A DNA stretch of 64,000 nt, from contig CAKUSQ010000001.1 of NCBI GenBank assembly GCA_934691225.1, positions 536,880-600,879 on the forward strand, written 5' to 3'. Numbering within the stretch: position 1 is the stretch's first letter; each line of letters begins with the position of its first letter. Below are positions 11,574-60,905 of this stretch, piece after piece. Origin of the DNA: an uncultured Opitutales bacterium. Lineage in GTDB: Bacteria; Verrucomicrobiota; Verrucomicrobiia; Opitutales; UBA9783. Made by a program: the position numbers and the translations under genes. A model generated the notes under the pieces. That model saw nothing but the letters and a program-made list of their open reading frames with translations, was not told the DNA's origin and made no database searches.

Positions 11574-11578
11574 AAATA

Positions 11579-11676
11579 GCACTCAGGCACTCTACGGCAC
11601 AGAAAACTTTGACTACCGCTGCTACCTTCCGGTCCTGACGGGGTTCACAAATTTTTCTTGCATAGAACCCAAGTGC
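11579..11676 (-). ncRNA. ffs: Signal recognition particle RNA (small bacterial 4.5S type)
   Basis: The minus strand reads GCACUUGGG...CCCGUCAGGACCGGAAGGUAGCAGCGGUAG...CCUGAGUGC. The core matches the conserved domain IV sequence (E. coli 4.5S GGUCAGGUCCGGAAGGAAGCAGCC, from memory). The termini pair (GCACUUGGG / CCUGAGUGC). A promoter sits at the correct distance. Confidence 0.85.
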
Positions 11677-17515: not shown

Positions 17516-20500
17516 ATGAAAAAATGCTTGAAATATACAGTGGGATTGATGTCTTTAAGCGCTATTTTAATGGTACTTTTAATGATTGTTTCTCCTCTAC
17601 AGCGGTTTTGTTGTTCAATTATTTTGCACTGTTGTTTTAAAGAAGTTGTTATTTTGAATTATCGTGGTGGTTTAACATCAATATCCGTCGATAAAATTGC
17701 GGCTAAAAATGACAAGGCAGCATTTGAACTTAAAGATTTTAAATTGGAATGGCATCCGTGGAAATTACTTTTTGGAAGAGAATTGAATGTTACTTGTTTG
17801 CAGGGGTATTTGAATTTAAATTGTAAAAAGAAAGCAGCTGATAAATTATTATCTTATAAAGCTGGCTGGCAAGTAAGCCCTCTAGGGGCAAATAAAAATA
17901 CCTTTAGTTTTTTGAAGAAAATGCAATTTCCAGTGAAGTTAAATATTGATACATTGGATGTGGGAGGAAGTGGATTTTTTAACGAATTGCAGGTGGATAA
18001 CATTCATGTGATTTTAAAAAATGTAAAACCAGAACAAGCGGGAGAGGGGCAATACACAGCAATGTTTAGAATGCCTTTGAATGCAAAAGACCTTTCGGTT
18101 CAAGTTCAGGGGGATTTGCAAGTTTTTTCTAATAAAAAAAATTTATTAAGTTCAGTAAAGTGCAGTGGAAAAGTTAATTTGTCAGCGGATAATAAAAAAT
18201 ACCCAAGAATTATTTATACATTGAGTGTCGAAGGGAAAGATAGCTCTCCTCAAGAACACTTAAAGTTTGCGCTTCATTGTGGGCAAGCGAATGATTTTAC
18301 GTTGGTTGGTGAATCATTCAAAACAACAGATTATGCATATAATTTTAAATGGCAGGGTGTTTTTGATCACAGTTTGTTAAAAATATTTTTTCCTGAATAT
18401 ACGCCTGTGTTATCATTGCTTGCAGAAGGAGATTGTTTTCTTCGGAGAAAAGATTTAACATGGGGCAGTCATACTTATTTGAGTGCTTGGGCCAAACACC
18501 TTGAAGCGTTAGATCCATCATTGAAAATGATCCCAAGTTTAAATTTTAAGGCGAAGTTTGATGCAGATTTCGATTCTAATAGTGTTTGTTTTAAGCAGTA
18601 TAAAATTTCTGTGAAAGAAAAAGGAGCTCAGCGGTTATTTTTTGATTTAAATAGTCTTCAAGCGTTAACGTATCGTTATAAAACAGGTTTTGAAAAACCT
18701 AAAAAAGATGTTCAGTTGGCAGAGATTAATTTCTATGAAATTCCTTTTGAAATTTTTAATCCGTATTTACAAAAATATAAATGTCAGATTCGTGGATGTT
18801 TGAATACAGGGACGCTTAATTTTGCTTGGGATGAGCATAAAAACCAATGGAATATTTCAACTTTGCAGCCGTTAGCTTTTCATATTCAACATTTTGATGT
18901 CGATAAGAAAAATGTTGTTAGCGATGTCGATGGGCACATTAAAGAGAAGCTTTATTTGCAACAAGATATGTCCAAAGTGGAGTTTGATACGAATATATTG
19001 CTGACGGATACGAAATTTATGCCATTTTTTGAATTTATAGCCAAGGGGCATATAGGTTCAAATTCAAGCCAAATTTCGGGTTCAATTGATTTTAATCATC
19101 GTTGTGCAGAGCAATTGCTCCATTTGGAAAATTTAGATTGTCGTTTACATCCGGATTTATGTTTTAAAGGAGAATACAGTTTTTCAAGTAAGTCAGATAA
19201 AATTTTATTTAATACATTGAATTTATCAGCAAGTTCAGCTTCTGAAAATAAAAAGTGGTTGACATTAAATTTGTGGCAACCTGTTTCTATAAGTTGTAAG
19301 AATGAGATAAAGTTTGATCGAGAGGGGCAAATTATAACCTTAAAGGCTGATAGATGTCCTGTAAATCTTGTTGAAGCAGGTAAAGTAAGTTTGAAGGGAG
19401 AATTTTCTTGCGATTCAGAATTAGTATCTAAAGAAAATGCTGTAAACCTTATAGCAACAGATCCTTTGAAAATTACAGATTTAAAGGTAGGTTTTCAGCA
19501 GCAAGACTGGGTAAATATAACTCAAGCACAAGCAAAACTTCAGGGAAATTATTTAAAAAAGAAATGGCATTGCGATTTAGAAGATGTGAGTGTTTTGATG
19601 GATAAGGACGCTTTATTTTCTGGATACGTTAAGTTGGCTGGAAATGACTCAAAGATTAAAACTTCAGAAGGCCAATTTAAATTACAATTAGATTCATTAA
19701 GTATGCAGCCTTTTGCCCTAAAATATCCAGGACTTGTGGGTGAAGTTTCTGGACATTGGGATTTTGCAGATAAAAGGAAAGTTGCAAATGGGCATGCTAA
19801 TGTAGGTTGTGTGGAGTTTCCATTGAACATGGATGTAAAGATGGCGTATGAATTTGATCCTACCCATGAGCATCATTGGAAAGGTATAGGAGAATTGCGC
19901 GATAAGGATCATGTAAGCGATCTTAATGTGGATCTTTCAGTCAAAAAGGATGGTGTGTTTAATGGCCATATCGTAAGCGAAAAGATGTTTTTAAAAGATG
20001 TTTTGGCAACGATTTTTGGTGTGAAAAAGGTAAGTGAAGCTTTGATAAAAGCGAAACCAGAAACTACTGATGTTGCTTTGAATGCGAGAAATGAGGCGGA
20101 AACAAAGCAGGAAATACCTGTCGTAGGAACCTGTGATTTTAATTTTAAATCTATGGTTGCAAATGATGTCTTTTTAAAAGGTTTTACGGGACTATTGGAT
20201 GTTAATAAAGAGAGTATTGCCTTGAAAAACATTCAGGGTGAATTGTGTGAAGGTCGTATTAACGGTCATGGAAAATATTTTATAGAAAAATCGGATGCTA
20301 AAGTAGAATGGTCGTTCAATGGTGAGAATATGCAATTATCTCAGTTATGGGATATTCCATCTGCATTGAATTATCCTCTAGATCGTTATGGACAGTTGGC
20401 AGGAACATTGCGTTTGGGAAGCAATGGAGAGTGCTCTTTAAACAGTATGCAGAGTTTACGCGGCCAGGTTTCGGCGAAAATTACAGATGGTTATTATAAG

Positions 20501-21010
20501 GCGATAAGTAATGCTTCGCTTGCAGGACAAGCTGTATCAGGACTTACAACGACGTTAGGGTTAGTTTTAGGAGCAAATTTTTCAGGGATGAGCAATGTCG
20601 GTTTTTTAACCTCTTATCTACGTGCGATCCCTTTTAAATCTTTAGACCTAGATGTTCAACGTTTAACCGATGAGCAAGTGGTGGCAAAAACAGCTTTGTT
20701 GAACGATGATTTTGCTTTTTACACAGATAATCAGTTTTTAACGCAGCCAGGGAAATTTTGGCAAAATCAGCCGTTTGTAAGTCATTTATGGTTAAATGCG
20801 TCGAAAGCAAGCCCTTTGATGAATTACTTTGATTTTGATGAGGATTTGTCGGATGGGTTAGGTTATTGTCCTGGACCTAAATGTACGATCGATGGGACTT
20901 TAGGTAAACCTAATTATGCTGCTTTGTTGAACATTATTGTAAATAAAAAAAATCGTAAAGAAGTTGATAATAAGTCGCCGGTTCAACAATTGCTTCGACA
21001 GCTTTTTTAG
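17516..21010 (+). CDS. Very large (1164 aa) membrane-anchored envelope protein, AsmA/TamB-like by architecture only
   Basis: It has a single N-terminal TM segment (VGLMSLSAILMVLLMIV) followed by about 1100 aa of beta-rich sequence with no enzymatic motifs. The N-terminal pattern resembles AsmA-family proteins. The family assignment is tentative. Confidence 0.45.
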   Translation: MKKCLKYTVGLMSLSAILMVLLMIVSPLQRFCCSIILHCCFKEVVILNYRGGLTSISVDKIAAKNDKAAFELKDFKLEWHPWKLLFGRELNVTCLQGYLNLNCKKKAADKLLSYKAGWQVSPLGANKNTFSFLKKMQFPVKLNIDTLDVGGSGFFNELQVDNIHVILKNVKPEQAGEGQYTAMFRMPLNAKDLSVQVQGDLQVFSNKKNLLSSVKCSGKVNLSADNKKYPRIIYTLSVEGKDSSPQEHLKFALHCGQANDFTLVGESFKTTDYAYNFKWQGVFDHSLLKIFFPEYTPVLSLLAEGDCFLRRKDLTWGSHTYLSAWAKHLEALDPSLKMIPSLNFKAKFDADFDSNSVCFKQYKISVKEKGAQRLFFDLNSLQALTYRYKTGFEKPKKDVQLAEINFYEIPFEIFNPYLQKYKCQIRGCLNTGTLNFAWDEHKNQWNISTLQPLAFHIQHFDVDKKNVVSDVDGHIKEKLYLQQDMSKVEFDTNILLTDTKFMPFFEFIAKGHIGSNSSQISGSIDFNHRCAEQLLHLENLDCRLHPDLCFKGEYSFSSKSDKILFNTLNLSASSASENKKWLTLNLWQPVSISCKNEIKFDREGQIITLKADRCPVNLVEAGKVSLKGEFSCDSELVSKENAVNLIATDPLKITDLKVGFQQQDWVNITQAQAKLQGNYLKKKWHCDLEDVSVLMDKDALFSGYVKLAGNDSKIKTSEGQFKLQLDSLSMQPFALKYPGLVGEVSGHWDFADKRKVANGHANVGCVEFPLNMDVKMAYEFDPTHEHHWKGIGELRDKDHVSDLNVDLSVKKDGVFNGHIVSEKMFLKDVLATIFGVKKVSEALIKAKPETTDVALNARNEAETKQEIPVVGTCDFNFKSMVANDVFLKGFTGLLDVNKESIALKNIQGELCEGRINGHGKYFIEKSDAKVEWSFNGENMQLSQLWDIPSALNYPLDRYGQLAGTLRLGSNGECSLNSMQSLRGQVSAKITDGYYKAISNASLAGQAVSGLTTTLGLVLGANFSGMSNVGFLTSYLRAIPFKSLDLDVQRLTDEQVVAKTALLNDDFAFYTDNQFLTQPGKFWQNQPFVSHLWLNASKASPLMNYFDFDEDLSDGLGYCPGPKCTIDGTLGKPNYAALLNIIVNKKNRKEVDNKSPVQQLLRQLF

Positions 21011-21632: not shown

Positions 21633-21708
21633 GCGAGCGTAGCTCAGATGGTAGAGCACCACCTTGCCAAGGTGGACGTCGAGGGTCCGAATCCCTTCGC
21701 TCGCTCCA
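21633..21708 (+). tRNA. tRNA-Gly (anticodon GCC), CCA encoded
   Basis: Folded manually. Acceptor GCGAGCG/CGCUCGC, D arm GCUC..GAGC, anticodon stem CCACC/GGUGG with loop UUGCCAA, and T arm GAGGG-UCCGAAU-CCCUU. Confidence 0.93.
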
Positions 21709-22537: not shown

Positions 22538-24067
22538 ATGAAAAAAGTCTGTGTAATTTTATGTGTTATAATGCAGGGTTTGTTAATGTTAGCAGATACC
22601 AATGATAGCGCTGTTTTGCGTTGGGCTGCTGATGCTGAATCGGGTGTTCCGAATGTTTTTTTCAGTCCAAATAATCCTGATAAAATCACAGGTTTTGAAT
22701 ATGATATAGCAGAAGCAATAGCGGCGTGTTTAGGAAAACAATTGCAGTTTTTTGCAAATGATTGGGAAATGTTAGTGCCTGGATTGCAACGTGGGCAGTA
22801 TGACATTTTGCTTAATGCGATTGAATATAATGTTTGGCAACCTCTGGCTCAAAAAGCAGGTGTTGCTTTGTCGGTACCCTATTACATTACGCAGCTTCAG
22901 TTAGTTGTTTTGCAAACATCTTCTATTCAAAGTTTTTTAGATTGTACTGGAAAACGTATTGGAATTTTAAAACAATCGTGGCATGCAGAGAAAGCACTGA
23001 GGCGTTTATCAAATAGCGATGTGGTTGTTTATGATGATGAGGTAAAAGCTTATGCTGATTTGAAAAATAAACGTTTAGATGGGGTTTTGTTGGATTACCC
23101 TGAATCCTTTTATTATTCCAACATTGATAGCGATGTACGTTTAGTGAGGGATTCGATTATGCCAATAGCGTATTCAGTGATGGTGCGTGTGGAAGATGTA
23201 ACGTTGTTAAAATCGATTAATGCCGCGATAGCTCGGTTAAAATCCGATGGAACGTTTCGCCAAATTTTAGAAAATTGGCATCTTTGGAATAAAGAAACCG
23301 AAGACTATTATAAAGAAGGAACCTTTAAAAAGGATGCTTTTGCGCAATATATTTCAGATGTGAAGGATATGCAGCAGTCAGAGCATTTTATTTTTACATG
23401 TTTGCCTATTTTTGCCAGAGCTGCTTGGGTAACTTTAAAAATATCATTATTTGCTATGTTGTTAGCACTATTGATGGGATGTCCATTAGCTATACTGAGA
23501 ACGTATGGAAGTCGTGGAATTCGGTGCATTGTTTCCATATACGTAGAGTGTGTCCGTGGAACGCCATTACTAATACAATTGTTGCTTATTTTTTATGGAC
23601 TTCCAACCTTGTCTCCTTATTTGCCGAATCCTTTATCACAATGGATTTGTTTGAGTCCTTTTGTGGCGGGTGTTCTAGCGTTAGGAATTAATTATTCAGC
23701 TTATGAATCGGAAATTTATCGTGCAGGTTTGTTAGCAGTTCCAGCAGGACAAATGGAAGCAGCTCGGGCTTTGGGGATGACACATGCACAGGCATTGTTT
23801 CATGTTGTGTTTCCTCAAGCGATACGAACGGTTATTCCACCTGTAACCAATGATTTTATCATGTTGTTACAGGATTCCTCATTGGTTTCCATGATCACTA
23901 TCGTTGAGTTAACGCGAACGTACCAATGTTTAGCCGCTACACATTTTAATTATTTGCAAACGGGATTGATCGTAGCTGGATTTTATTTGCTTATCGGATT
24001 CCCATTCATTCGTTTGGCTCGTCGGTTTGAAAAGAAAATTACCTGTAAAATAAGAAGGATCTCATGA
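22538..24067 (+). CDS. Fused polar amino-acid solute-binding domain + ABC permease (GlnP-like fusion)
   Basis: The N-terminal half is type-3 SBP-like (GFEYDIAEAIAACLGKQLQF...WEMLVPGLQRGQYDILLNAI). The C-terminal half is a His/Glu/Gln/Arg/opine-family permease with an EAA loop (MEAARALGMTHAQALFHVVFPQAIR). Confidence 0.85.
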   Translation: MKKVCVILCVIMQGLLMLADTNDSAVLRWAADAESGVPNVFFSPNNPDKITGFEYDIAEAIAACLGKQLQFFANDWEMLVPGLQRGQYDILLNAIEYNVWQPLAQKAGVALSVPYYITQLQLVVLQTSSIQSFLDCTGKRIGILKQSWHAEKALRRLSNSDVVVYDDEVKAYADLKNKRLDGVLLDYPESFYYSNIDSDVRLVRDSIMPIAYSVMVRVEDVTLLKSINAAIARLKSDGTFRQILENWHLWNKETEDYYKEGTFKKDAFAQYISDVKDMQQSEHFIFTCLPIFARAAWVTLKISLFAMLLALLMGCPLAILRTYGSRGIRCIVSIYVECVRGTPLLIQLLLIFYGLPTLSPYLPNPLSQWICLSPFVAGVLALGINYSAYESEIYRAGLLAVPAGQMEAARALGMTHAQALFHVVFPQAIRTVIPPVTNDFIMLLQDSSLVSMITIVELTRTYQCLAATHFNYLQTGLIVAGFYLLIGFPFIRLARRFEKKITCKIRRIS

Positions 24068-26754: not shown

Positions 26755-26796
26755 AGGTTAAGTCTTCAATTAATTTATTCATAAACCGCTTTTTCA

Positions 26797-26824
26797 TTGA
26801 CGTAAAATGAAGAGTCGGTACGAT
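26797..26824 (+). promoter_or_regulatory. Candidate sigma-70-type promoter upstream of the ECF sigma operon
   Basis: TTGACG (26797-26802), a 16-nt spacer, then TACGAT (26819-26824), 11 nt before the ATG at 26836. No obvious ECF-type GGAAC/CGT promoter was seen. Confidence 0.35.
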
Positions 26825-26835
26825 GCTTACTACGC

Positions 26836-27462
26836 ATGGAAGATGATCAAAGAGAGCGTTTAGAGATTTCAAACAATGAAGATCTTGAATGGCTAGCTCG
26901 GTATAAGGCAGGAAATTCGCATGCGTTTAATTTTTTTGTTAAGAAGTATCAGTATCGGCTTTACCGTGTTATTTATAACATAACAAGTAATAAGGATGAC
27001 ACAGCAGACGTTTTACAAGAAGTTTTTGTGAGGGCTTTTCGTGCGATAGGAACTTTTAAAGGGCAAGCTTGTTTTTACACGTGGCTTTATAGGATAGCTG
27101 TAAATACTACATTAACTTTTTTAAAGAAAGTTAAGCGTTATCGTCCTATGAGTTTAGAAAGCTGGAATGAAGAAGAAAAAGTACCTGAAGGTATTTTTAA
27201 GGATACAACGGCGGAAAATGGAAATCGATCAACTTTATTAAAAGAATTGCAAGAAAAATTGAACGAAGCTCTACAAAAGTTGTCTTTAAAACATAGAACA
27301 GTCATTGTTTTATTTGAAATCGAAGGTATGAGTCATACGGAAATCGCAAAAATGCTGAATTGTTCTGAAGGAACCGTGAGGTCACGTTTGCATTATGCCA
27401 AAGAAGAATTGAAACATTTACTGTCTGAATATTTAAATGATTATGGAAGTACAAAAAATTGA
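26836..27462 (+). CDS. ECF (group 4) RNA polymerase sigma factor
   Basis: Region 2 is DTADVLQEVFVRAFRAIGTFKGQACFYTWLYRIAVNTTLTFLKK. Region 4 HTH is HRTVIVLFEIEGMSHTEIAKMLNCSEGTVRSRLHYAKEELK. Confidence 0.9.
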   Translation: MEDDQRERLEISNNEDLEWLARYKAGNSHAFNFFVKKYQYRLYRVIYNITSNKDDTADVLQEVFVRAFRAIGTFKGQACFYTWLYRIAVNTTLTFLKKVKRYRPMSLESWNEEEKVPEGIFKDTTAENGNRSTLLKELQEKLNEALQKLSLKHRTVIVLFEIEGMSHTEIAKMLNCSEGTVRSRLHYAKEELKHLLSEYLNDYGSTKN

Positions 27463-27838
27463 TGTAGAATCACTGATTCGATTAAAGCGTAATGAAATGC
27501 CCAATGAGGCTTTTTGGGATGAATTTGATCATCAATTGCAATTGCGTTTAGCGAATGAGATGGTTGTCGCTAAAGATACCGTATGGAATCGCTTAAGCTA
27601 TTGGATACGTCGTTTTGTGCCGTTAGCTTCCGGTTGTGCTTTGGCAGTGCTTTTGATAGTTTCATTTGTAAAACCTTCGGGAATGTCACGATATGTCGTT
27701 CTTTCCAATCCAGCTTCTGTGGAAGAATGTTCACGATCGGTATTAACCTCATCGTTTTATGAGGATGGCGTACCCATGAAAAGTGTTATACAAAAGAAAA
27801 TGATTGCATCCAATGTCGCAAATTGTTTTTCTTTCTAA
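27437..27838 (+). CDS. Single-pass membrane protein, probable cognate anti-sigma factor (non-ZAS)
   Basis: It overlaps the 3' end of the sigma gene. A short cytoplasmic N-terminal helix is followed by one TM helix (FVPLASGCALAVLLIVSFV) and a small periplasmic tail. There is no HxxxCxxC motif. The call is by position and topology. Confidence 0.55.
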   Translation: MIMEVQKIDVESLIRLKRNEMPNEAFWDEFDHQLQLRLANEMVVAKDTVWNRLSYWIRRFVPLASGCALAVLLIVSFVKPSGMSRYVVLSNPASVEECSRSVLTSSFYEDGVPMKSVIQKKMIASNVANCFSF

Positions 27839-27841
27839 GTA

Positions 27842-28897
27842 ATGCAGTTAAATTGTAAACGTTATCGCTTTGTTTTAGGTTGTTTTAGCTTGTTGTGGGT
27901 TTCATTGATTTGTACGAGCCTGCAAGCATCTTCTGAGGAAGAGGTAATAAACAAACTTCCATTGGCTGGTCATGAGCATCAGGTTCCCCAAAAAGAAGTG
28001 ATGAAGGATTCTCTTGGGGAAGAAAAGGTTGGGAAATTATCTTTACCAAAGTTATATGAGAAATTAAGTCCGTATGTGGTTAAAGTAAAATGTCTAGTGG
28101 ATGGAAGCTCTAAGTTAGTAAGCGGTTTTTTTGTAAGCCAAGAAGGGCATGTGTTAGCGCCTATTTTGAATGGAAAAGATTTTTGTATAGAAACAGTCCA
28201 TGGGCAGGTATTTAGAGCAGAAAAGTTGGGTGAGGATAGCGTGACTTCCATTTGCCTTTTAAAAACAAAATTAACGAAGCAGACGGTGCCTTATTTTTCA
28301 CTCGTTCGATCAATTTGTCAACTTTCTATAGGTCAGACAGTTGTAAGTTTGTCATGTAAGCTAGGCCTAAATATTTCCCCCCAATTGGGATATGTTACGG
28401 GTTTTAATGATCGTTATTTTAAATTTGAATGGCCTATGACATTTGTAAGAACTTCATTGCGTATCGATGGTGGAGATTGTGGGGGTGCTGTTCTGAATGA
28501 ACAGGGTTCTTTTTTGGGTATGTTATTGCACGCATTGCAAGATTCACAAGAGACTTTTTTTATGCCAGTTACAGGTTTGTATAAAATTTTTCAGGATCTA
28601 TTGTTGCATGGTCGTGTTCGTTATGGATTTGTTGGCGTAAATACGCAGGTTGTTTTCGATAATAAGTATAAAAGAACTTGTTTGCAGGTTGTAAAAGTGC
28701 ATGCGTTGTCGCCTGCTGAAAAGGCTGGGTTAAAAGAAGGTGACATTTTGTTAGCTGTCAACGATAGCGATATTGATTCTATTGGAAATTTCAAAGATTC
28801 TATGTTTTTATCAAATCCAGGTGATATTGTATTTATAAAATATCTCAGAGATGATAAAGAATGTGTTGTTCGATTAGAAATCGGTGAAAAATCATAA
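27842..28897 (+). CDS. Secreted HtrA/DegS-like trypsin-fold + PDZ protein with non-canonical (probably inactive) catalytic triad
   Basis: It has a signal peptide (FSLLWVSLICTSLQASS). The trypsin-fold blocks align with DegP. VSGFFVSQEGHVLAPILNG aligns with GSGVII..GYVVTNNHVV, so the His is lost. SICLLKT aligns with SDIALIQI, so the Asp is lost. DGGDCGGAVLN aligns with GNSGGALVN, giving Ser->Cys. The C-terminal PDZ is intact (GFVGVN...SPAEKAGLKEGDILLAVN). Confidence 0.75.
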   Translation: MQLNCKRYRFVLGCFSLLWVSLICTSLQASSEEEVINKLPLAGHEHQVPQKEVMKDSLGEEKVGKLSLPKLYEKLSPYVVKVKCLVDGSSKLVSGFFVSQEGHVLAPILNGKDFCIETVHGQVFRAEKLGEDSVTSICLLKTKLTKQTVPYFSLVRSICQLSIGQTVVSLSCKLGLNISPQLGYVTGFNDRYFKFEWPMTFVRTSLRIDGGDCGGAVLNEQGSFLGMLLHALQDSQETFFMPVTGLYKIFQDLLLHGRVRYGFVGVNTQVVFDNKYKRTCLQVVKVHALSPAEKAGLKEGDILLAVNDSDIDSIGNFKDSMFLSNPGDIVFIKYLRDDKECVVRLEIGEKS

Positions 28898-28955: not shown

Positions 28956-29417
28956 ATGAAAGTTCAAGAACTGCAAGAAATTGTTAAGTTAATGGAAAAC
29001 TCAGGAATTGCTGAGTTAAGTCTTGAAGAAGAAAATTTGAAGTTATCGCTAAAGCGAGAGATTAAAACGCCAGCGGTTATTGCGGTTCCACAAGCGCCGG
29101 TAGCGGTTGCTGCACCTTTGGCTAGTCCAACCACTCCTGTTGTACCTTCCGCCAATGTACCTATGGAAGATGCAAATGTATTTATTGTTAAATCACCTAT
29201 GGTAGGTACATTTTATTCAGCACCTTCGCCGGATAGTGCTCCTTTTGTAACAGAAGGGGATCATGTTTCTAATGACACAGTGGTTTGTATTTTGGAAGCT
29301 ATGAAGGTAATGAACGAAATTCATGCTGAGTGTTCAGGAAAAATTACAGAGGTTTTGGTAAAGAGTGGTACCCCGGTGGAATATGGTCAGCCTTTGTTTA
29401 AAGTCCAACTAGGTTAA
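28956..29417 (+). CDS. accB: Biotin carboxyl carrier protein of acetyl-CoA carboxylase
   Basis: Ala/Pro-rich linker and the biotinylation motif [11 protein letters not shown]. Confidence 0.93.
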
Positions 29418-29419
29418 TT

Positions 29420-30790
29420 ATGATTCGCAAGATTTTAATTGCTAACCGAGGAGAAATTGCACTGCGAGTAGTTCGTGCTTGCCGAGAACTTGGAATAAAA
29501 ACATTAGCTGTTTATTCAGAGGCAGATGAACAATCTTTACCAGTACAGTTAGCAGATGAAGCTATTTGCATTGGGCCTGCACCTGCATTTCAAAGTTATT
29601 TGAAGGCAGATCGTATCTTGAGTGCGGCTGAATTAGGAGATGTCGATGCAATACATCCAGGGTATGGATTTTTATCAGAAAATGCTACATTCGCAGAGCA
29701 ATGTGAATCATGCAAATTGAAATTTATTGGACCTTCTTCTAAAACCATTCGTTTAATGGGAGACAAAGTTTTAGCTCGTCAAATGGCTATTAAGGCAGGT
29801 GTTCCGACAGTTCCTGGAAGTAAAGATGCTATTGTTGATGAGAAAGAGGGGTTGAAAGTTGCTAATGCAATCGGTTATCCGGTCATTATTAAAGCTTCTG
29901 CAGGAGGGGGAGGTAAAGGTATGCGTATTGCGCATAATGCGGTTGCTTTTACTAAGGAATTTCGTACGGCACAAATTGAAGCGGAAAAAGCATTTAATAA
30001 TGGAGCGGTTTATGTAGAAAAATACATTGAAGAGCCGCGTCACATAGAGTTTCAGGTTTTAGCGGATGCTTATGGACATGTAATTCATTTAGGAGAAAGA
30101 GATTGTTCTTTACAGCGTCGTTATCAAAAATTAGTGGAAGAGGCACCTTCGAGTTTTTTGGATGATTCGTTGCGCGAAAAAATGGGGAAAGCTGCCATTC
30201 AGTTGGCACGTGAGTGTCAGTATGAAGGTGTAGGTACGTTAGAATTTTTGGTGGATAAGCATGGTAATTTCTATTTTATAGAGATGAACACGCGTATTCA
30301 GGTTGAGCATACGGTTACTGAAGAAGCGATGGGTATTGATTTAGTTAAATGGCAGATTCGGGTGGCTAATGGTGAACATTTGACCTTAAAGCAGGAAGAT
30401 ATCTTTTGTAAATGCCACGCGATTGAGTGTCGTATCAATGCGGAAGATCCTGAGAAGGATTTTATGCCGTGTCCAGGGCATATTGATTTTTATTATGCTC
30501 CAGGTGGTAAAGGTGTGCGTATTGATTCGCATGTATATGGAGATTATTCAATTCCTCCGTACTATGATAGCATGATTGGTAAGTTGATTGTGACCGGAGA
30601 TACGCGTGCAGAAGCGATTGATCGTATGCATCGAGCTTTAAATGAATACCTTGTTCATGGCATAAAGACGACAGTTCCTTTGTGCAAAAAGATTATGTTG
30701 GATCCTGTCTATCGTGAAGGTAAGATCACAACAAAATATATGGAGACTTTTTTAAACAGAATTCAGGAGAAAGGGGACATTCAAAAATGA
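29420..30790 (+). CDS. accC: Biotin carboxylase subunit of acetyl-CoA carboxylase
   Basis: [26 protein letters not shown], an ATP-grasp core (GGGGKGMRI), and [10 protein letters not shown]. Confidence 0.95.
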
Positions 30791-31230
30791 CAGGAGAAAT
30801 TAAGGATGGGGTTGATGTAAAAGTGCCATTTCCCAAAAGTAACCATCAAGCGGTTATGGGGGATATAAAAATTAATCATAGTGTTGTTGCTAATATTGTT
30901 CGTTTAGCTGCGCAGCAAGTAGAAGGTGTACATTCTGTTGGCGGTGGTTTTGTTGAGGGTATTGCAGAAATTTTTTCGAAGAAGGATTCAGAGCGAGGTG
31001 TTCGTGTTTCTGAAAATGAAGTAGGTGAGTACGAAATCGAAGTTAAAGTAAATTTGATGTTTGGGTATGAATTAGCTAGAGTAGGTGCAAGTATACAGAG
31101 GAGCATAGCTGAACATGTTTTGCGAATGACTATGAAGCCCGTTGATCGTGTGGATGTAATTATCGATGGAGTAAAAACGGAAGCACCTACAAATCCTAAA
31201 ACAGAAAATAATTCGGATATAGAAGCTTAA
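30787..31230 (+). CDS. Asp23/Gls24-family (alkaline shock protein-like) protein
   Basis: [25 protein letters not shown]...[23 protein letters not shown] matches the Asp23/DUF322 pattern. An ATGA overlap joins it to accC. Confidence 0.7.
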
Positions 31231-31236
31231 TTAGGT

Positions 31237-31704
31237 ATGTTTTTTGATATAAAAACTTTCTTTTTTACACTATTTGACCTGTGTGTTCAATATAAGGAAC
31301 GAGTATTATTAGGAATAGGTTTGGGGATTGTTTTTTATGTGGTTCATCGATTGCGTTTAAGAAACGTGCCAATTAAAACTTCTTCAAATGAATTAGGGGA
31401 ATTGTTTGTTACTCGTAATGCGGTCATTTATTTGATAAATGATGTTAGTGCAGCTATGCATTTGGGGCAAATAATGCGCATAAAATTGTTTGATAAGAAA
31501 AATTTATTGCGTGTAAAGTTGTATGTTCGTCTTTATGCAAATCAATCTTTTGATGCTGTATCGATGGAATTTCAGCAGCGTATACAACAAAGTATCGCTA
31601 AATGTCTTGGAATTGTAAAAAATGTACGTGTGGATGTGATTTTACATTCCATGGAAAAAATTAAATCTTCTGATGATGATAAGAAAGTGACTTTAGGAGA
31701 GTAA
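31237..31704 (+). CDS. Small membrane protein, possible Asp23 membrane anchor (AmaP-like)
   Basis: An N-terminal TM helix (VLLGIGLGIVFYVV) is followed by an Asp23-like alternating beta pattern (LRVKLYVRLYANQSFDAVSMEFQQRIQQSIAKCLGI..VRVDVIL). Assigned by architecture and position. Confidence 0.4.
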   Translation: MFFDIKTFFFTLFDLCVQYKERVLLGIGLGIVFYVVHRLRLRNVPIKTSSNELGELFVTRNAVIYLINDVSAAMHLGQIMRIKLFDKKNLLRVKLYVRLYANQSFDAVSMEFQQRIQQSIAKCLGIVKNVRVDVILHSMEKIKSSDDDKKVTLGE

Positions 31705-31706
31705 AA

Positions 31707-32702
31707 ATGGAAAATAATGAAAGAAAAGTTATTGTAACGGGAGCACAACCTACAGGGATGTTTCACCTGGGAAATTATTTAGGGGCTGTGAAGAATTGGC
31801 GTCCGTTGCAGCACGATTATGAATGCTTTTTTTTCATTCCTAATTTACACTCTATGACGTGCCCACCGTATGTTCCTTCTGAACTGCGAAAGAATACGTA
31901 TAGTTTGTTGGCGCAGTATTTAGCATGCGGGTTAGATCCTAAAATAAGTCATTTATTCGTGCAATCAGAAATTGTGGGTCATACCGAACTTGCCTGGGCG
32001 TTGAGTTGTATTACGCCAGTCGGACAATTGTTTCGCATGACGCAATTTAAGGCAAAGAGCGAAGATAAAGACTTTGTTGGCAGTGGTTTACTTTTTTATC
32101 CTGTTTTGATGGCCGCAGATATTTTGCTTTACAATGCAGATTGTGTTCCGGTTGGAGAAGATCAAAAGCAGCATGTTGAGTTGACGCGTGATTTGGCTTT
32201 GAAATTTAATCAGACATATTCAGATACGTTCGTATTGCCGGAGCCTTATATATTAAAAACGTGTGCGCGGGTTTATTCGTTACAGAATCCACAAAAGAAA
32301 ATGTCCAAATCAGATAAAGATAAGAAAGGTACGGTGTTGTTGTTCGAGTCAGTTGATGAAATCCGCAAAAAATTTAAGTCAGCTGTGACAGATTCAGGTT
32401 CTGGAATTTATTGTAGTGAAGATAAACCGGGTATTACAAATTTAATTGAAATTTTATCAGCCATAACCGATCGTTCTATTCATGAAGTGGAAGAGGCGTA
32501 TCAGAATTATAATTATGGAGATTTCAAAAATTGTGTTGCTGAAGCCGTTATTGAACACTTAAAGCCGTTGCAAGCAATGTATTTTGATTTGATGAAAAAT
32601 CAGGATTACCTGTGTGCCGTTTTGGAAGAAGGTAAACGTGTAGCCCAAGAACGTGCTTCTCGAATGATGTCAAAGGTTTACAAAAAAATTGGCATGATTT
32701 AA
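31707..32702 (+). CDS. trpS: Tryptophanyl-tRNA synthetase
   Basis: GAQPTGMFHLGNYLGA (HIGH-type) and KMSKSD motifs, 331 aa. Confidence 0.93.
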   Translation: MENNERKVIVTGAQPTGMFHLGNYLGAVKNWRPLQHDYECFFFIPNLHSMTCPPYVPSELRKNTYSLLAQYLACGLDPKISHLFVQSEIVGHTELAWALSCITPVGQLFRMTQFKAKSEDKDFVGSGLLFYPVLMAADILLYNADCVPVGEDQKQHVELTRDLALKFNQTYSDTFVLPEPYILKTCARVYSLQNPQKKMSKSDKDKKGTVLLFESVDEIRKKFKSAVTDSGSGIYCSEDKPGITNLIEILSAITDRSIHEVEEAYQNYNYGDFKNCVAEAVIEHLKPLQAMYFDLMKNQDYLCAVLEEGKRVAQERASRMMSKVYKKIGMI

Positions 32703-32703
32703 G

Positions 32704-33159
32704 ATGAAGAAGAAAACTTCGGGTTTTACAGTCATTGAATTGTTGGTTGTTTTAGTAGTTGTGTCAGTACTTATGGGTGCTGTGTTTCCATTAGGCAGCC
32801 AATTAAGAAAAAAAGCTTTGTTGTTGTCAAAAAAGACGGATGCTTTGCGTTTTCAAGCGGCTTTTATGGATTATTTTCAGCAATATCACCATTACCCTGA
32901 ATGTTTCCCAATAGATTCATGGTTTGATTTATCTTTGTATTTTCAAAAATTCGTAAGAGAATTTTCTGGCAATCAAGCAACAGAAGATAATCCAGAAAGT
33001 GTTCAATTTTGTACCTTCACAGCACAAGAATTGGCAACTTTAAAAGTAGAATCTATGCATTTTTTCTTGTGCATTGATACTACACCGCTTCAAGCTAGCC
33101 AAGTTTTAGATTATAAAAAGGAAATTTTTGGAACACGTGTGTTGTTTTACGTTGATTAG
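32704..33159 (+). CDS. Prepilin-type N-terminal cleavage/methylation-domain protein (pseudopilin-like), divergent C-terminal domain
   Basis: MKKKTSG|FTVIELLVVLVVVSVLMGAVF is the classic G/FTxxE prepilin peptidase site with a hydrophobic helix. The remainder is unassignable. Confidence 0.75.
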   Translation: MKKKTSGFTVIELLVVLVVVSVLMGAVFPLGSQLRKKALLLSKKTDALRFQAAFMDYFQQYHHYPECFPIDSWFDLSLYFQKFVREFSGNQATEDNPESVQFCTFTAQELATLKVESMHFFLCIDTTPLQASQVLDYKKEIFGTRVLFYVD

Positions 33160-39629: not shown

Positions 39630-39776
39630 GACGTCTTTGTTATAAGGGGTATAAAAAACATTTATTGTGAAAAGTGCAAGTTTGTAAGTAAGGGTTTTGT
39701 TTTTTGTTAAAAAATGATTGACTTGTGACGATTTTTAATAAAAATAATGCGATTTAATAATAACGTAAGGAGTTGC

Positions 39777-42152
39777 ATGATAGATTTATTTAAATCGAGT
39801 GTAAAAAGTATTCTATTTGGTGCAGGGGTTTTAGGTTGTGCCCATGCTGCATTAACTACAGATGATATTGTAAATTTGCTAAATTTACAAAATCCTGGTA
39901 TTGGTGGGGCGCCAAACGTGCCGCCTCCCCCAAATATAGCTGGAGTTGGAAATGTTCCATTTCCAAAATTAAAGAAAATTATTGAAAGTAATACGTCTAG
40001 AGGAAACGAGAGGGAAGAACTGTTTAATTTGTTAAGGTTGATTGATAAAATGTATAACTTCCCAGGGGCAACATTTTCAATGGGAGGTAAAAATTATCCT
40101 TATACAAATTCTAAAGATGTTGAATATATTAAATCGATAGAAGATAAAAATGAATCTGATCCAACAATACACGAGCTGGCAAAGAGTCGCAAAAATTTAG
40201 AAGATCTAATTAATGGCATTAGTCTTTCAAAGATGCCTCACAGTGTAGATGTTGGTACGGTAATGAATTTTTTTGATGATCAAGGAAAGGGACCTTTGGC
40301 ATTTTTGTATAAACTTAATGATCCTCTTATGCCTGAAGAGATTGGAAGAGGCATTAACAGAATTATTGATAAAATAAAACAAGGTGAAGATAAATATAGA
40401 GAAGCTGTTTTGAAATATAATCAAGATATAAAAGAAAGAAATGATTTAAAAAATTTACGACCATATAATCTTAACGTAAGTGAGCATACATTGTTAAATA
40501 AGGTTAAGGAACTTGAAAATATAGTTGCGGTTACTGACAGGAAAAATATTGAAGGAGTATTGGCCAAGTTTTTTGGCAAGCTTAGCATGTTAAACAAAGA
40601 GCAATCGGTTGCATATGAGGAAACGAACAAAAGAGTGACTGAGTTACAGGAACAAAAGAGAAAGATCGATGCTCAAATTAAAAGTTTTTATACGGTTACG
40701 AATCCTATGGAAGGTATGTCAAATAGCCAGAAGCTTATATATGAATTACAACATCAAGCAGAAATAAAAGAATATCAAGCAAGAAAGAAGCAAGAACAAG
40801 AAGCATTAGAAAATAGGACTGATTTTAAGGACTTAACTAGTAAGTTACAATTTTTAACAGAAGATATCGCTGAATGCAATAGAACTCTAGATGTTTTTAA
40901 AAAACAGATAGTTGGTAAAAGTGAGGTATATAAAGAAATAAGAACGTTGGGTGAGAAGTATCCTTTGAACTACAGTAAAGCGGTGGCGACTATTTTAAAT
41001 CAGCCAGTGCAAGATATTAAAATAGAAGAACCAACAATTTCTGAGGATGCTCCTTCAAGTTCTGCTACTAAGCCTGAAGCCAAGCCAGAGGCTAAAAAAG
41101 CACCTGCTAAGCCTAAATCACACCCTTTGGGGAAAAGTGTAGCAACAACTAAGACAGAAAAAGCTGATGTTGAAGTAGATGTAAAGGCGATGTTGAACAA
41201 AACTGAGCCAAAAAAGAAAGAACTAACTGAGGAAGAAAGATTAAAACAAGAAAATGTTGATTTACGAAGACAATTAGCAGATAAAATGAGGGAAAATTCA
41301 GGAAAAATTTCCTCAATAAGAGAAGAATTAGCGAGGGATTACCAAAAAGCTAATATGGGTTATATGATTGAGCTTGAAAAAAGTCAAAAAACTCTAAATG
41401 AGATAAAAAATCAACTTCAACTGAAAGATGAGACAATCGAAAGATTGAAAAGACAATTAGGTGAATTGCAAAACCGTAATGCGGGTGCATTGAAAAATAA
41501 TGAAAATAATAATAACAATGCAGCGTTAGAAAATCTTGAAAAACTTAACAATGCATTAAAAGATCGTAACAGTGCATTAGAACGTGATTTAGCTGCTGAG
41601 CGTGCTAAAAATGCTAACAGTGAACAAAATACGAAAGAAGTCGTAAAAGAACGTATTGTTCGTAGAGGCGGTACAACAACGGTGATTGAAGATACGGAAA
41701 GAATAGATGCCTTGACTAAAGATATTGAAGCTCGAAATGCTCAATTGAGTCAGCAACAAAGTGCATTGGATTCAAAAGATGCTCAAATCCGTCAATTGCA
41801 GCAACGTAATCAACAATTACAGAACCAATTAAACGCTCAGGAAGATAATAAGCAAAGCCCAGCTTCAAACGAACCGAGTGTTAATGAGGATAATCTGAAA
41901 TTGCAACGTCAGCAATTGGAAGAAATGGCCGCAGAGCTTGAAAATAAGCAAAATGAGCTTAAGGATCGCGAAGCCGAAGTTTCTAAACGTGAACAAACGG
42001 TAAATCAGATGCAGCAAACAACAAACAATGTTTTGCAGATGTTGAATAGACAAAACAATGAAGCATCTCAGAATGTAAATGCTGGTCAAAATGAAGCAAC
42101 AAAGAAAGGTGATGTTGAAATGATGCCACAACAAGTTAAGTTGGGTGCATAA
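39777..42152 (+). CDS. Secreted 791-aa coiled-coil protein with Pro-rich N-terminal segment, PEAK/AKP low-complexity linker and Gln/Asn-rich C-terminus; function unknown
   Basis: The ATG at 39777 is preceded by taAGGAGttgc. The signal peptide is SILFGAGVLGCAHA. Long heptad-like stretches include ERLKQENVDLRRQLADK and IRQLQQRNQQLQNQLNAQ. A strong terminator follows. Confidence 0.75.
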   Translation: MIDLFKSSVKSILFGAGVLGCAHAALTTDDIVNLLNLQNPGIGGAPNVPPPPNIAGVGNVPFPKLKKIIESNTSRGNEREELFNLLRLIDKMYNFPGATFSMGGKNYPYTNSKDVEYIKSIEDKNESDPTIHELAKSRKNLEDLINGISLSKMPHSVDVGTVMNFFDDQGKGPLAFLYKLNDPLMPEEIGRGINRIIDKIKQGEDKYREAVLKYNQDIKERNDLKNLRPYNLNVSEHTLLNKVKELENIVAVTDRKNIEGVLAKFFGKLSMLNKEQSVAYEETNKRVTELQEQKRKIDAQIKSFYTVTNPMEGMSNSQKLIYELQHQAEIKEYQARKKQEQEALENRTDFKDLTSKLQFLTEDIAECNRTLDVFKKQIVGKSEVYKEIRTLGEKYPLNYSKAVATILNQPVQDIKIEEPTISEDAPSSSATKPEAKPEAKKAPAKPKSHPLGKSVATTKTEKADVEVDVKAMLNKTEPKKKELTEEERLKQENVDLRRQLADKMRENSGKISSIREELARDYQKANMGYMIELEKSQKTLNEIKNQLQLKDETIERLKRQLGELQNRNAGALKNNENNNNNAALENLEKLNNALKDRNSALERDLAAERAKNANSEQNTKEVVKERIVRRGGTTTVIEDTERIDALTKDIEARNAQLSQQQSALDSKDAQIRQLQQRNQQLQNQLNAQEDNKQSPASNEPSVNEDNLKLQRQQLEEMAAELENKQNELKDREAEVSKREQTVNQMQQTTNNVLQMLNRQNNEASQNVNAGQNEATKKGDVEMMPQQVKLGA

Positions 42153-51608: not shown

Positions 51609-53120
51609 TTATTGTTGTTGATGTATTTCTATTAGTATATCAGCTGGATTTAAGCCGGAATCAATTAAATTTTCTATTAACATCTCTCTTACATTTTCCA
51701 CATTACCATTACCGGTATCAATAATCGTGATGGTTTGTAGATTATAGCAACGACTAAAGCAATTTTCCCTTATATGCTTTATATTATCAGATATAGTGAT
51801 CGTTGATAATTTAGAACAACCAGCAAAGCAAAACGCACCTAAAAAAGTTACAGAATTAGGAATAGTAATTTCTTCTAAACCTCTGCAATCATCAAAACAA
51901 GACACACCTAAATAAGTTACAGAATTAGGAATAGTGATTTTTTGGCAGCGACTATAACTAAAGCACCCATGTCCTAAAGAAGATACACCATTAGGAACGT
52001 TATAACAAAGAGGTTCAGCATCAGGTGTTAATGTTTGGAATTTGTTAGTGTGGTTTATTCTATCTGTTCGGGTGAAAAAAATGTTTGAAAATTTATTTTG
52101 CGTTTCATCTTTGTGAGCTAAGTAAAAATCATAACTTACTGGATGTTTGTATTCGTGTTGTTTAATAGGAGATAGCTTCTTAACGAATGGTAAAAAAGGC
52201 TCTGTTTGTTGGGAATTTTGTTTGTATGTTGTTATTTCCATATTGTATGGGTTTAGGTCTGATAGAATTAAGTTTTCTATTAACATTTTTTCTACATTTT
52301 CCGCATTACCATTACCGGTATCAATAATCGTGATGGTTTGTAGATTATTGCAATCTTTAAAGCAATGTTCTCCTAAATATTGTATATTATCAGGTATAGT
52401 GATCTTTTGTAAATTTTTACACTTCACAAAGCAATATTTGCCTAAATAAGATGTATAAATGGGGATGTTAATTTCTATTAAATTATTGCAACCCATAAAA
52501 CACCAACCACCTAAATGAGTTACAGAAATGGGGATGTTAATTCTTCTTAAATTATTGCAATGCCTAAAGCACATATCGCCTAAAGAAGATACAGAATTAG
52601 GAATAGTAATTTCTTGTAAATCATGGCAAAGCATAAAGCACTTATTGCCTAAAGAAGTTATTTGCTCAGGAATATTATATGTTTCAGAGTGATTTATTCG
52701 ATTTTCTCTTGTGTAAACAATACCTGAAATATTATATTTTTCCAATTTTTCGAGTCGTCTCAATTCATCTTTGTGCTGTAAAAAGAAATCATAGTCTATT
52801 GGATATCCATATACATAGTTTTGGATGTTTCCATCGGTAAACACTTCATCTTCTGGAGAAAACAACACTTGGGTTTGGATATTAGGGAAAAGGTGACGAT
52901 TTCTTTTTGTTAAAGGAATTGGGTTCCTCTTGAGTATATCGAGTGCTGTTTGGCCATTTTTGCTAACAAATGGCAAATTCCTAAGGTCCGCTTCATTATT
53001 TAAGTGTAATGCAACGTTCGCTAAGTATATAGGTTCTAGTTTCGAAGGATCAGATTGGAGGTTTGGTAAAGCAGAAGCTGCTATTAACAATCCTATATTT
53101 ATTTTATTTTTTGTGTTCAT
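51609..53120 (-). CDS. F-box-like + BspA/TpLRR-type leucine-rich-repeat protein, paralog 1 (two-unit fusion, 503 aa)
   Basis: It has the conserved N-terminal module MNTKNKINIGLLIAASALP...KLEPIYLANVALHLNNEADLRNLPFVSKNGQTALDILKRNPIPLT. It has two blocks of 23-aa repeats of the form I(T/N)IPxSV(T/S)xLGxxCFxxCxxLQx, each closed by an ITIIDTGNGN..ENV..MLIENLI tail. Confidence 0.85.
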   Translation of the reverse strand: MNTKNKINIGLLIAASALPNLQSDPSKLEPIYLANVALHLNNEADLRNLPFVSKNGQTALDILKRNPIPLTKRNRHLFPNIQTQVLFSPEDEVFTDGNIQNYVYGYPIDYDFFLQHKDELRRLEKLEKYNISGIVYTRENRINHSETYNIPEQITSLGNKCFMLCHDLQEITIPNSVSSLGDMCFRHCNNLRRINIPISVTHLGGWCFMGCNNLIEINIPIYTSYLGKYCFVKCKNLQKITIPDNIQYLGEHCFKDCNNLQTITIIDTGNGNAENVEKMLIENLILSDLNPYNMEITTYKQNSQQTEPFLPFVKKLSPIKQHEYKHPVSYDFYLAHKDETQNKFSNIFFTRTDRINHTNKFQTLTPDAEPLCYNVPNGVSSLGHGCFSYSRCQKITIPNSVTYLGVSCFDDCRGLEEITIPNSVTFLGAFCFAGCSKLSTITISDNIKHIRENCFSRCYNLQTITIIDTGNGNVENVREMLIENLIDSGLNPADILIEIHQQQ

Positions 53121-53193
53121 TATTTTTAAATTACAGTGATGAATACAAATTAAATATTTTTATTTTGTCAAGATTTAAATATTGGATTTATGT

Positions 53194-53228
53194 AAACAAA
53201 AACGCCACATGAAAAACATGTAGCGTTT
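53194..53228 (-). terminator. Rho-independent terminator of LRR paralog 2
   Basis: The same hairpin as at 51558, with loop aaaaa. The single stem difference is a C/A mismatch on the + strand but a G-U pair on the minus-strand RNA. Confidence 0.75.
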
Positions 53229-53250
53229 AATGTTGAATAGGTTGATAGGG

Positions 53251-54396: not shown

Positions 54397-54469
54397 TATT
54401 TTTAAATTACAGTGATGAATGTAAGGTAAATATTTTTATTTTGTCAAGATTTAAATATTGAATTTATAT

Positions 54470-54504
54470 AAACAAAAACGCTACATGAAAAACATGTAGC
54501 GTTT
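54470..54504 (-). terminator. Rho-independent terminator of LRR paralog 3
   Basis: AAACGCTACATG-aaaaa-CATGTAGCGTTT, with a T-run on the minus strand. Confidence 0.75.
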
Positions 54505-54526
54505 AATATTGAATAGGTTAATAGGG

Positions 54527-55882: not shown

Positions 55883-55892
55883 ACTTTTTAAA

Positions 55893-55921
55893 AGTATAGC
55901 AATGAATTTGCATCTTGTCAA
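55893..55921 (-). promoter_or_regulatory. Near-consensus sigma-70 promoter of paralog 3
   Basis: On the minus strand: TTGACA (55921-55916), a 17-nt spacer, TATACT (55898-55893), then only 10 nt to the ATG. The other three paralogs keep a TTGACA box (53166-53171, 54442-54447, 57171-57176) about 46 nt upstream of their ATGs, with a weaker -10. Confidence 0.5.
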
Positions 55922-55946
55922 AGTTGAAAATGGATACGGTTTATAT

Positions 55947-55981
55947 AAACAAAAACGCCACATGAAAAACATGTAGCGTTT
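55947..55981 (-). terminator. Rho-independent terminator of LRR paralog 4
   Basis: AAACGCCACATG-aaaaa-CATGTAGCGTTT, with a G-U pair on the minus-strand RNA and a T-run following. Confidence 0.75.
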
Positions 55982-56009
55982 AATATAGAATAGGTTAATA
56001 GGTGTTTTG

Positions 56010-60815: not shown

Positions 60816-60905
60816 TGGCGGAGAGAGGGGGATTCGAACCCTCGGTGGAGTTACCTCCACACCTGATTTCGAGTCAGGCACATTCGGCCACTCTGTCATC
60901 TCTCC
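60816..60905 (-). tRNA. tRNA-Ser (anticodon CGA), class II with long variable arm, CCA encoded
   Basis: Folded manually. Acceptor GGAGAGA/UCUCUCC, anticodon stem CCUGA/UCAGG with loop CUCGAAA, variable arm GUGGAG..CUCCAC, and T loop UUCGAAU with one A-C mismatch in the T stem. Confidence 0.88.

Follow-up and report, generated by a model that had tools for sequence, protein, structure and literature searches.

The window analysed here, a 64,000-nucleotide stretch of contig CAKUSQ010000001.1 from an uncultured Opitutales bacterium (assembly GCA_934691225.1), has a low GC content of about 36% and encodes, at positions 26836-28897 of the forward strand, three tightly packed open reading frames (ORFs). 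These specify a sigma factor of the extracytoplasmic function (ECF) type, a small membrane protein that is a candidate anti-sigma factor, and a protein with an HtrA fold and a PDZ domain that has lost its catalytic triad, hereafter pseudo-HtrA (Table 1). The second ORF overlaps the stop codon of the sigma gene by 20-26 nt, depending on the start chosen, and the pseudo-HtrA gene begins 3 nt past the stop of the second gene. The initial annotation of this DNA had placed an ECF sigma factor, a single-pass non-ZAS protein and an HtrA-fold PDZ protein at this position, a description with which the ORF boundaries, Pfam and TIGR scores, hydropathy and AlphaFold2 models all agree.

A sigma factor and a candidate anti-sigma factor

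The sigma protein contains Sigma70_r2 and Sigma70_r4_2 domains only, the composition of an ECF (group 4) factor, and scores 110.3 bits against TIGR02937 (cut-off 42.9). Its match to the RpoE equivalog model TIGR02939 is below the cut-off (149.8 vs 236.15 bits), making the protein RpoE-like rather than an RpoE equivalog. Across the Opitutales/Puniceicoccales the sigma protein displays 53-71% identity.

The product of the second gene has a single strong hydrophobic segment (residues 58-76), preceded by basic residues. The AlphaFold2 model comprises helices at residues 8-17 and 22-39, a transmembrane helix at residues 47-75 and a tail with predicted local distance difference test (pLDDT) values below 55; in isolation, the periplasmic C-terminal tail of ∼55 residues is thus predicted to be disordered. 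The best-conserved part of the protein is the N-terminal helix pair (EDLLRLKRxExP..FW..FD..L), as expected of a sigma-binding element. The sequence lacks the ZAS motif (HxxxCxxC), has no match in NCBIfam and none in the PDB at E values up to 10, and no Pfam match was obtained for any of 32 members of the family; the protein belongs to none of the known anti-sigma families considered (RseA_N, zf-HC2/ZAS, RskA and others). The search recovered 381 homologues, and in nearly all surveyed loci with enough sequence a sigma gene lies immediately upstream of the homologue. From the overlapping gene, the N-in single-pass topology, the conserved N-terminal helices and the sigma gene upstream we infer that the middle gene encodes an anti-sigma factor, which would define a previously unannotated family distinct from those described.

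Table 1. Features of the sigma/anti-sigma/pseudo-HtrA locus and of the RseP-like gene (window coordinates).
Feature	Position	Strand	Basis
ECF (group 4) sigma factor, RpoE-like, 208 aa	26836-27462	+	Sigma70_r2, Sigma70_r4_2, TIGR02937
Anti-sigma candidate, 131 aa (133 aa from alternative start 27437)	27443-27838	+	Position, hydropathy, AlphaFold2
Pseudo-HtrA, 351 aa	27842-28897	+	Trypsin_2, PDZ_2, alignments, AlphaFold2/Foldseek
Three-residue deletion removing the catalytic His, GHVLAP---ILNG vs canonical G[YH]IxTNxHV	28157-28165	+	HMMER, MAFFT
Ser136 at the catalytic Asp position, TSIC vs TDIA	28247-28249	+	HMMER, MAFFT
Cys213 (TGT) at the catalytic Ser position, in GGDCGGAV; GDCGGA vs GNSGGP	28478-28480	+	HMMER, MAFFT
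PDZ carboxylate-binding loop G-F-V-G-V, residues 262-266	28625-28639	+	Aligned to GYLGV and GLLGI of solved HtrAs
NCFSF-COOH end of anti-sigma candidate, putative OMP-like PDZ ligand	27821-27835	+	Conservation among homologues
Promoter-like site upstream of sigma gene, TTGACG-N16-TACGAT	26797-26824	+	Consensus scan, upstream-region alignment
RseP-like site-2 metalloprotease gene, unlinked to the trio	60969-62681	-	Peptidase_M50 (4.2e-52), two PDZ stretches

The HtrA-like protein lacks the catalytic triad

Pseudo-HtrA consists of an N-terminal signal or anchor helix, a disordered linker (residues ∼28-62), a chymotrypsin-fold domain and one C-terminal PDZ domain. The chymotrypsin fold is recognized by Trypsin_2 (31.9 bits, cut-off 27.6), and the scores against the equivalog models for DegP (89 vs 416 bits) and DegS (TIGR02038, 76.2 vs 422.95 bits; NF008147, 69.2 vs 408 bits) fall short of their cut-offs. 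An AlphaFold2 model built on the family alignment has a mean pLDDT of 84.7, and its best Foldseek matches in the PDB are DegP, DegS, DegQ, AlgW and MucD, with E values of about 1e-24 and TM-scores of 0.64-0.85. The HtrA fold, previously assigned by eye, is therefore borne out by the structural model.

To locate the triad positions, the protein was aligned with solved HtrAs (HMMER) and with canonical DegQ-type proteins (MAFFT). A deletion covers the position of the catalytic His, Ser136 stands in place of the Asp and Cys213 in place of the Ser, confirming that the whole triad has been replaced. In an alignment of 38 family members the His position is deleted in 34 and occupied by His in none; the Asp position contains Ser (24), Gln (5), Asn (3), Ala (2), Thr (2) or Gly (2), but never Asp; and the Ser position contains Cys (31), Gly (6) or Ser (1). 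The His-Asp-Ser triad characteristic of the HtrA/S1C proteins is found neither in pseudo-HtrA nor in 44 operon partners surveyed in metagenomes (see below). The absence of the triad throughout the family upholds the earlier view that the DegS-like protein is unable to perform serine catalysis; the HtrA-like member of the module is, as read from its sequence, a pseudoprotease for which Ser-His-Asp catalysis is impossible. His103, in the GHV motif, was considered as a stand-in base and rejected, as the position is occupied by Tyr in four members. Reading frames are intact in the approximately 40 orthologues of pseudo-HtrA (38-94% identity), which share 20 invariant columns, showing that the gene is not a chance ORF.

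The loss of the triad extends beyond these orthologues. A profile search of 1.84 billion representatives was performed and the best 150 matches were aligned to the profile; among the 132 that could be scored all three catalytic residues are lost in 76, while the full triad is present in 23. The best 150 matches include ∼100 clusters (50% identity; P0276-P0416) of HtrA-like proteins in which part or all of the triad has been lost, with typical motifs TN[IL][AS]LL and G.GEGG[SA]P, and such triad-deficient relatives carry the database label ‘S1C family serine protease’. Given these counts, the gut clade, to which the window protein belongs, is one branch of a large and old family of pseudo-HtrAs.

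The trio is a conserved module with an either/or distribution

The exact pseudo-HtrA protein is present on 23 public contigs; one of these, 842 kb long and from a Hadza gut metagenome, shows an identical gene order. Named relatives comprise an Opitutales bacterium, a Coraliomargarita sp. and a Puniceicoccales bacterium, and these names assign the window to a gut-dwelling representative of the Opitutales/Puniceicoccales (Verrucomicrobiota). The trio of sigma factor, small transmembrane protein and HtrA-like protein recurs in all 11 loci that were looked up, with gene order and tight spacing unchanged. These loci represent the same species (L001-L004), gut-clade relatives at 45-55% identity (L006-L008), and marine Coraliomargarita-type and Puniceicoccaceae-type lineages at 23-28% identity (L009-L012). 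The trio is also whole in two further loci (L095 and L096). A match to a Bacteroidia PDZ protein, obtained in a single-protein scan of genome contigs, was rejected as spurious.

A pattern scan of Joint Genome Institute (JGI) metagenomes with the anti-sigma alignment yielded 80 loci, in which ORFs were called and searched with profiles. In this survey the homologues of the anti-sigma candidate fall into two classes, a short class of ∼170-225 aa and a long class of 265-310 aa. An HtrA-like gene is located directly downstream of the short-class gene in 44/44 loci with enough sequence, but in 0/23 long-class loci. In all 44 short-class partners the catalytic His is missing and the Asp position is occupied by Asn. 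The long-class proteins contain ∼100 additional periplasmic residues, partly of low complexity, and are followed by a gene encoding a fumarase-type lyase. They occur in Opitutaceae and in soil and peat metagenomes (L015-L016, L029, L032, L040, L045, L068, L072 and others), and include a protein of the cultured Oleiharenicola sp. Vm1 (L093:4635-5432). The 11 loci looked up and the 44 short-class metagenome loci show that the HtrA-like gene is conserved with the sigma/anti-sigma pair, a point on which the initial annotation had said its reading could fail; the trio is a conserved envelope-signalling module of Opitutales/Puniceicoccales, in both gut and marine lineages.

The anti-sigma candidate ends in a PDZ-ligand-like motif

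PDZ domains of DegS and AlgW read C-termini of the YxF and WVF type, which are exposed on unassembled outer-membrane proteins (OMPs). Among 120 listed homologues of the anti-sigma candidate, 112 have a terminal hydrophobic-x-aromatic tripeptide with Phe or Tyr as its last residue (LVY in 65, FSF in 14, LTF in 13, FVY in 8 and LAF in 5), and those without an aromatic end are mostly fragments on short contigs. In the metagenome survey Phe or Tyr is the C-terminal residue in 46/47 short-class proteins, and the long class ends in Phe, as a conserved [IVL]-[KR]-F, in 26/30 and in Leu in 4/30. As background, an end of the Phe/Tyr type is present in 6/55 ORFs of the window (11%). In the gut clade the terminal NCFSF is invariant while the remaining tail varies. 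The C-terminus of the anti-sigma candidate resembles those OMP C-termini that activate DegS.

The presumed reader of such a motif is intact in the third protein of the module. The C-terminal PDZ domain of pseudo-HtrA (PDZ_2, 2.5e-10) has, as is typical of HtrA proteins, a predicted carboxylate-binding loop, which reads R-Y-G-F-V-G-V in the window protein and W-M-G-[FL] in the marine clades, with x-Phi-G-Phi kept family-wide.

A proposed model in which a dead HtrA shields the anti-sigma tail

The textbook account of envelope-stress signalling is the sigma-E/DegS/RseP cascade, in which cleavage by DegS is the committed step. Many of its components have counterparts here: an RpoE-like ECF sigma factor, a single-pass N-in anti-sigma candidate encoded directly downstream, a periplasmic component of DegS size with an HtrA fold and a single PDZ domain, and a C-terminal aromatic motif of the YxF type. 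In addition, the RseP gene reported in the initial annotation was recovered, as an ORF with a Peptidase M50 core and an inserted PDZ tandem. The Opitutales system differs from the Escherichia coli sigma-E pathway in that the DegS-like protein is without a triad and has its gene in the sigma operon, the YxF-like motif is located on the anti-sigma candidate itself, which is unrelated in sequence to RseA, and the operon contains no RseB or RseC homologue.

We propose that the two conserved N-terminal helices of the anti-sigma factor would hold the sigma factor at the membrane, while its disordered periplasmic tail, ending in hydrophobic-x-Phe/Tyr, would mimic an OMP C-terminus. The dead HtrA, which is presumed to form trimers as its relatives do, would bind this end through its PDZ domain, and its dead substrate cleft may also hold the tail. 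With the tail made bulky and its hydrophobic C-terminus hidden, RseP or another tail-recognizing protease would be blocked. When unassembled OMPs accumulate their C-termini would compete for the PDZ domain and the anti-sigma tail would be released. The freed tail might then resemble site-1-cleaved RseA and be cut by RseP, freeing the sigma factor. The DegS step would thereby be replaced by binding and competition, rather than by cleavage. Several features of the known pathway accord with such a sequence of events: the PDZ domain of DegS senses exposed hydrophobic residues of unfolded OMPs, a size-filter role has been suggested for the PDZ domain of RseP, truncated RseA and MucA are cut by RseP without site-1 cleavage, and the hydrophobic C-terminus of cleaved RseA has been proposed to contact the RseP PDZ domain (PMC10202637).

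We put the probability of the model as a whole at roughly 0.4. The constant pairing of a short tail with pseudo-HtrA, and its absence from every long-tail locus, fits shielding that is supplied either in trans or in cis. Triad loss, the kept PDZ loop and the PDZ-ligand-like anti-sigma end likewise favour a PDZ-based regulator with an RseB-like or decoy role, the first of the options listed in the initial annotation, and use of another site-1 protease, a further option raised there, is compatible with the model. A more far-reaching version is a switch for regulated intramembrane proteolysis that operates without any site-1 protease: the built-in OMP-end mimic on the anti-sigma factor would be sequestered by the PDZ domain of a dead DegS homologue, OMP C-termini would compete directly and RseP would take the freed tail, whereas the long anti-sigma factor of the Opitutaceae would be shielded in cis by its extra periplasmic domain. 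We consider this version doubtful.

Some of the evidence weighs against the model. The long class of the Opitutaceae keeps the aromatic C-terminus although no pseudo-HtrA is encoded in the operon, indicating that the motif has another, or an additional, reader. The tails of the marine clades, at ∼100 aa, match the RseA periplasmic domain in length, restricting the ‘short tail’ argument to the gut clade. Finally, it is only through position, topology and conservation that the middle gene is identified as a putative anti-sigma factor.

RseB and MucB have the role proposed here for pseudo-HtrA, that of a periplasmic binder of the anti-sigma factor that blocks proteolysis and is released on envelope stress. 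They are, however, not homologous to pseudo-HtrA, which has an HtrA plus PDZ fold, and the proposed signal would be OMP C-termini rather than lipid or lipopolysaccharide intermediates; no RseB-like gene is present in the operon, nor does the third gene encode an RseB fold. The free hydrophobic-x-aromatic C-terminus is shared with MucE and with OMP C-terminal peptides (WVF and YxF), ligands of the DegS and AlgW PDZ domains, but here the motif is on the anti-sigma candidate and the PDZ domain on a dead enzyme, so that cleavage by that protein cannot be activated. To our knowledge HtrA pseudoproteases are known from magnetosomes (MamO) and not in sigma-factor control. A sigma/anti-sigma/pseudo-HtrA module was not found described in the literature searched in full text, and HtrA, PDZ and Verrucomicrobia all go unmentioned in the main text of the paper that re-classified the ECF sigma factors. 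The features that are new here are the OMP-mimic C-terminus on the anti-sigma candidate and the order-wide, mutually exclusive distribution of the module. Throughout an entire order, with human-gut and abundant marine lineages among its members, a DegS-like component has been kept without catalytic residues, and the type of motif that activates DegS is located on the anti-sigma candidate itself. If binding and competition do operate, a proteolytic sensor would have been turned into a stoichiometric one, and the module would provide a clean natural system in which to study the size-filter and C-terminal-recognition models of RseP.

Alternative roles for pseudo-HtrA

A dead HtrA could instead be an effector of the MucD/DegP type. 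As a protease-less holdase chaperone within the sigma regulon it would bind misfolded OMPs via its PDZ domain and cleft, lowering the inducing signal by negative feedback and leaving the anti-sigma factor untouched. It is generally known that DegP deprived of its Ser is still a chaperone, and that HtrA genes end sigma/anti-sigma operons elsewhere. Indeed, the order sigma factor, anti-sigma factor, HtrA-family gene is shared with algU-mucABCD of Pseudomonas aeruginosa, rpoE-rseA-mucD of Xanthomonas campestris and sigE-rseA-htrA of Mycobacterium tuberculosis, MucD structures are among the fold matches of pseudo-HtrA, and both the fold and the PDZ domain of the latter are intact. The HtrA proteins of these operons retain the Ser-His-Asp triad and are active proteases, in contrast to the Opitutales module in which the triad is lost in every member. 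A chaperone role leaves unexplained both the strict pattern in which short anti-sigma factors occur with pseudo-HtrA and long ones without it, and the conserved PDZ-ligand-like end of the anti-sigma candidate, and is in our view unlikely.

Slightly less probable again is an adaptor or activator role, in which pseudo-HtrA would join an active protease of the HtrA or Prc type whose gene lies elsewhere, perhaps as mixed trimers, and would present the anti-sigma tail to it for site-1 cleavage, much as MamO acts with MamE. Proteolysis that depends on MamE is promoted by the HtrA pseudoprotease MamO, and pairs of active and inactive HtrAs have evolved repeatedly (PMC4794232). MamO thus provides a precedent for an HtrA scaffold kept for non-catalytic work and paired with a proteolytic pathway. 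It differs from pseudo-HtrA in that it keeps triad-like residues (with a Thr nucleophile), binds metal through a di-His site, functions in biomineralization (PMC4794232) and is not connected with an ECF sigma factor; the NCBIfam MamO model matches pseudo-HtrA with an E value of only 0.0015. The long-class anti-sigma factors, which have the aromatic end without pseudo-HtrA, imply another reader and would suit an adaptor, but a second HtrA gene was found neither in the 64-kb window nor in the surveyed flanks.

The initial annotation had also raised a Cys-nucleophile variant of the fold. In its fullest form, a cysteine protease would have been re-invented in the gut clade, with Cys213 as nucleophile and a relocated base, for example His230 (approximately chymotrypsin position 215), and would cut the anti-sigma tail as the site-1 protease. 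In keeping with this proposal the oxyanion-loop GG is retained and 31 of the 38 aligned members have Cys at the nucleophile position, while His230 is found in each of the 35 gut-clade members but in none of the three Coraliomargarita-type ones, which likewise lack Cys213. Gut-clade proteins without Cys213 are nevertheless intact, with Gly in P0002 (DGCDGGG), P0003 and P0023 (GGGDGGG) and Ser in P0035. The closest such relatives, P0002 and P0023, are encoded at loci L095 and L096, in intact trios whose anti-sigma tails end in NCFSF. Moreover, in the wider family with the same operon, Gly is at the Ser position in 40/42 short-class partners that cover it, with Cys two residues later (GGQGGCP). 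A Cys that in other members lies at -2 or +2 is unlike a fixed catalytic geometry, and neither the canonical His nor the canonical Asp is left. The replacement of Cys213 by Gly or Ser in members that keep the module, and in the wider family, renders a Cys-nucleophile enzyme very unlikely. The alignments point instead to a dead active site that is ancestral, with Cys213 a late and dispensable change on an already dead scaffold. The least credible reading, that the middle gene is not an anti-sigma gene (its product has no Pfam or PDB homology) and the HtrA-like gene a decaying remnant without a role, runs counter to the intact state of both genes in gut, marine and soil lineages, their invariant columns and translational-coupling geometry, and the peak of conservation in the N-terminal helices of the middle protein; a non-functional remnant is excluded by this conservation.

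Both partners contain cysteines that are specific to the gut clade. In pseudo-HtrA three are frequent, C138 (28253-28255), C172 (28355-28357) and C213, and disulfide pairing among them was rejected as unsupported, there being no obligate co-variation. In the anti-sigma tail C96 (27728-27730) and C128 (27824-27826) are invariant in the gut clade, while marine-clade tails contain none. These residues possibly reflect redox chemistry, metal binding or the composition of anaerobe proteins.

Promoter, downstream genes and other features of the window

A block upstream of the sigma gene, TTTTTAATTGACG (26780-26824, forward strand), is kept across the gut-clade loci and reads as a sigma-70-like -35 element with TACGAT 16 nt further downstream. 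A recognizable autoregulatory promoter of the ECF type (AAC...CGT) was not found upstream of the sigma gene, where the sigma-70-like site is the only putative promoter. Although the pseudo-HtrA gene is the last of the trio, as described in the initial annotation, its position as the end of the operon is uncertain, because accB and accC begin 58 nt further on and the gap contains no predicted terminator; transcriptional read-through from the pseudo-HtrA gene into accBC is possible. The region 28956-33159 (forward strand) encodes AccB, AccC, an Asp23-family protein, a 155-aa protein of no assigned family, TrpS and a prepilin-type N-methyl protein, and this synteny is kept in all gut-clade loci.

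Elsewhere in the window, four tandem paralogues with near-identical N-termini (MNTKNKINIGLLIAASALPNLQSDPSKLEP) are encoded on the reverse strand at 51609-57125; three end in ...QQQ, and both of those that were scanned belong to the BspA-type leucine-rich-repeat proteins (LRR_5 and LRR_8). An 801-aa ORF without a Pfam family (39747-42152, forward strand) coincides with an AT skew of +0.27 at 40001-42000, compared with about 0 elsewhere. A 509-aa ORF (22538-24067, forward strand) fuses a domain for periplasmic solute binding (SBP_bac_3) to one of the ABC permease type (BPD_transp_1) and is followed by genes for phosphatidylserine decarboxylase and a second, 564-aa permease. The window also contains a small signal recognition particle RNA (11578-11674, reverse strand) and two tRNA genes, at 21633-21705 (forward strand) and 60819-60905 (reverse strand), the second of which adjoins the RseP-like gene. 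A further envelope-biogenesis gene is located near the module, at 17516-21010 (forward strand); it encodes a 1164-aa protein that ends in ...LRQLF and has a weak match to the AsmA family, members of which are implicated in outer-membrane lipid transport and assembly.

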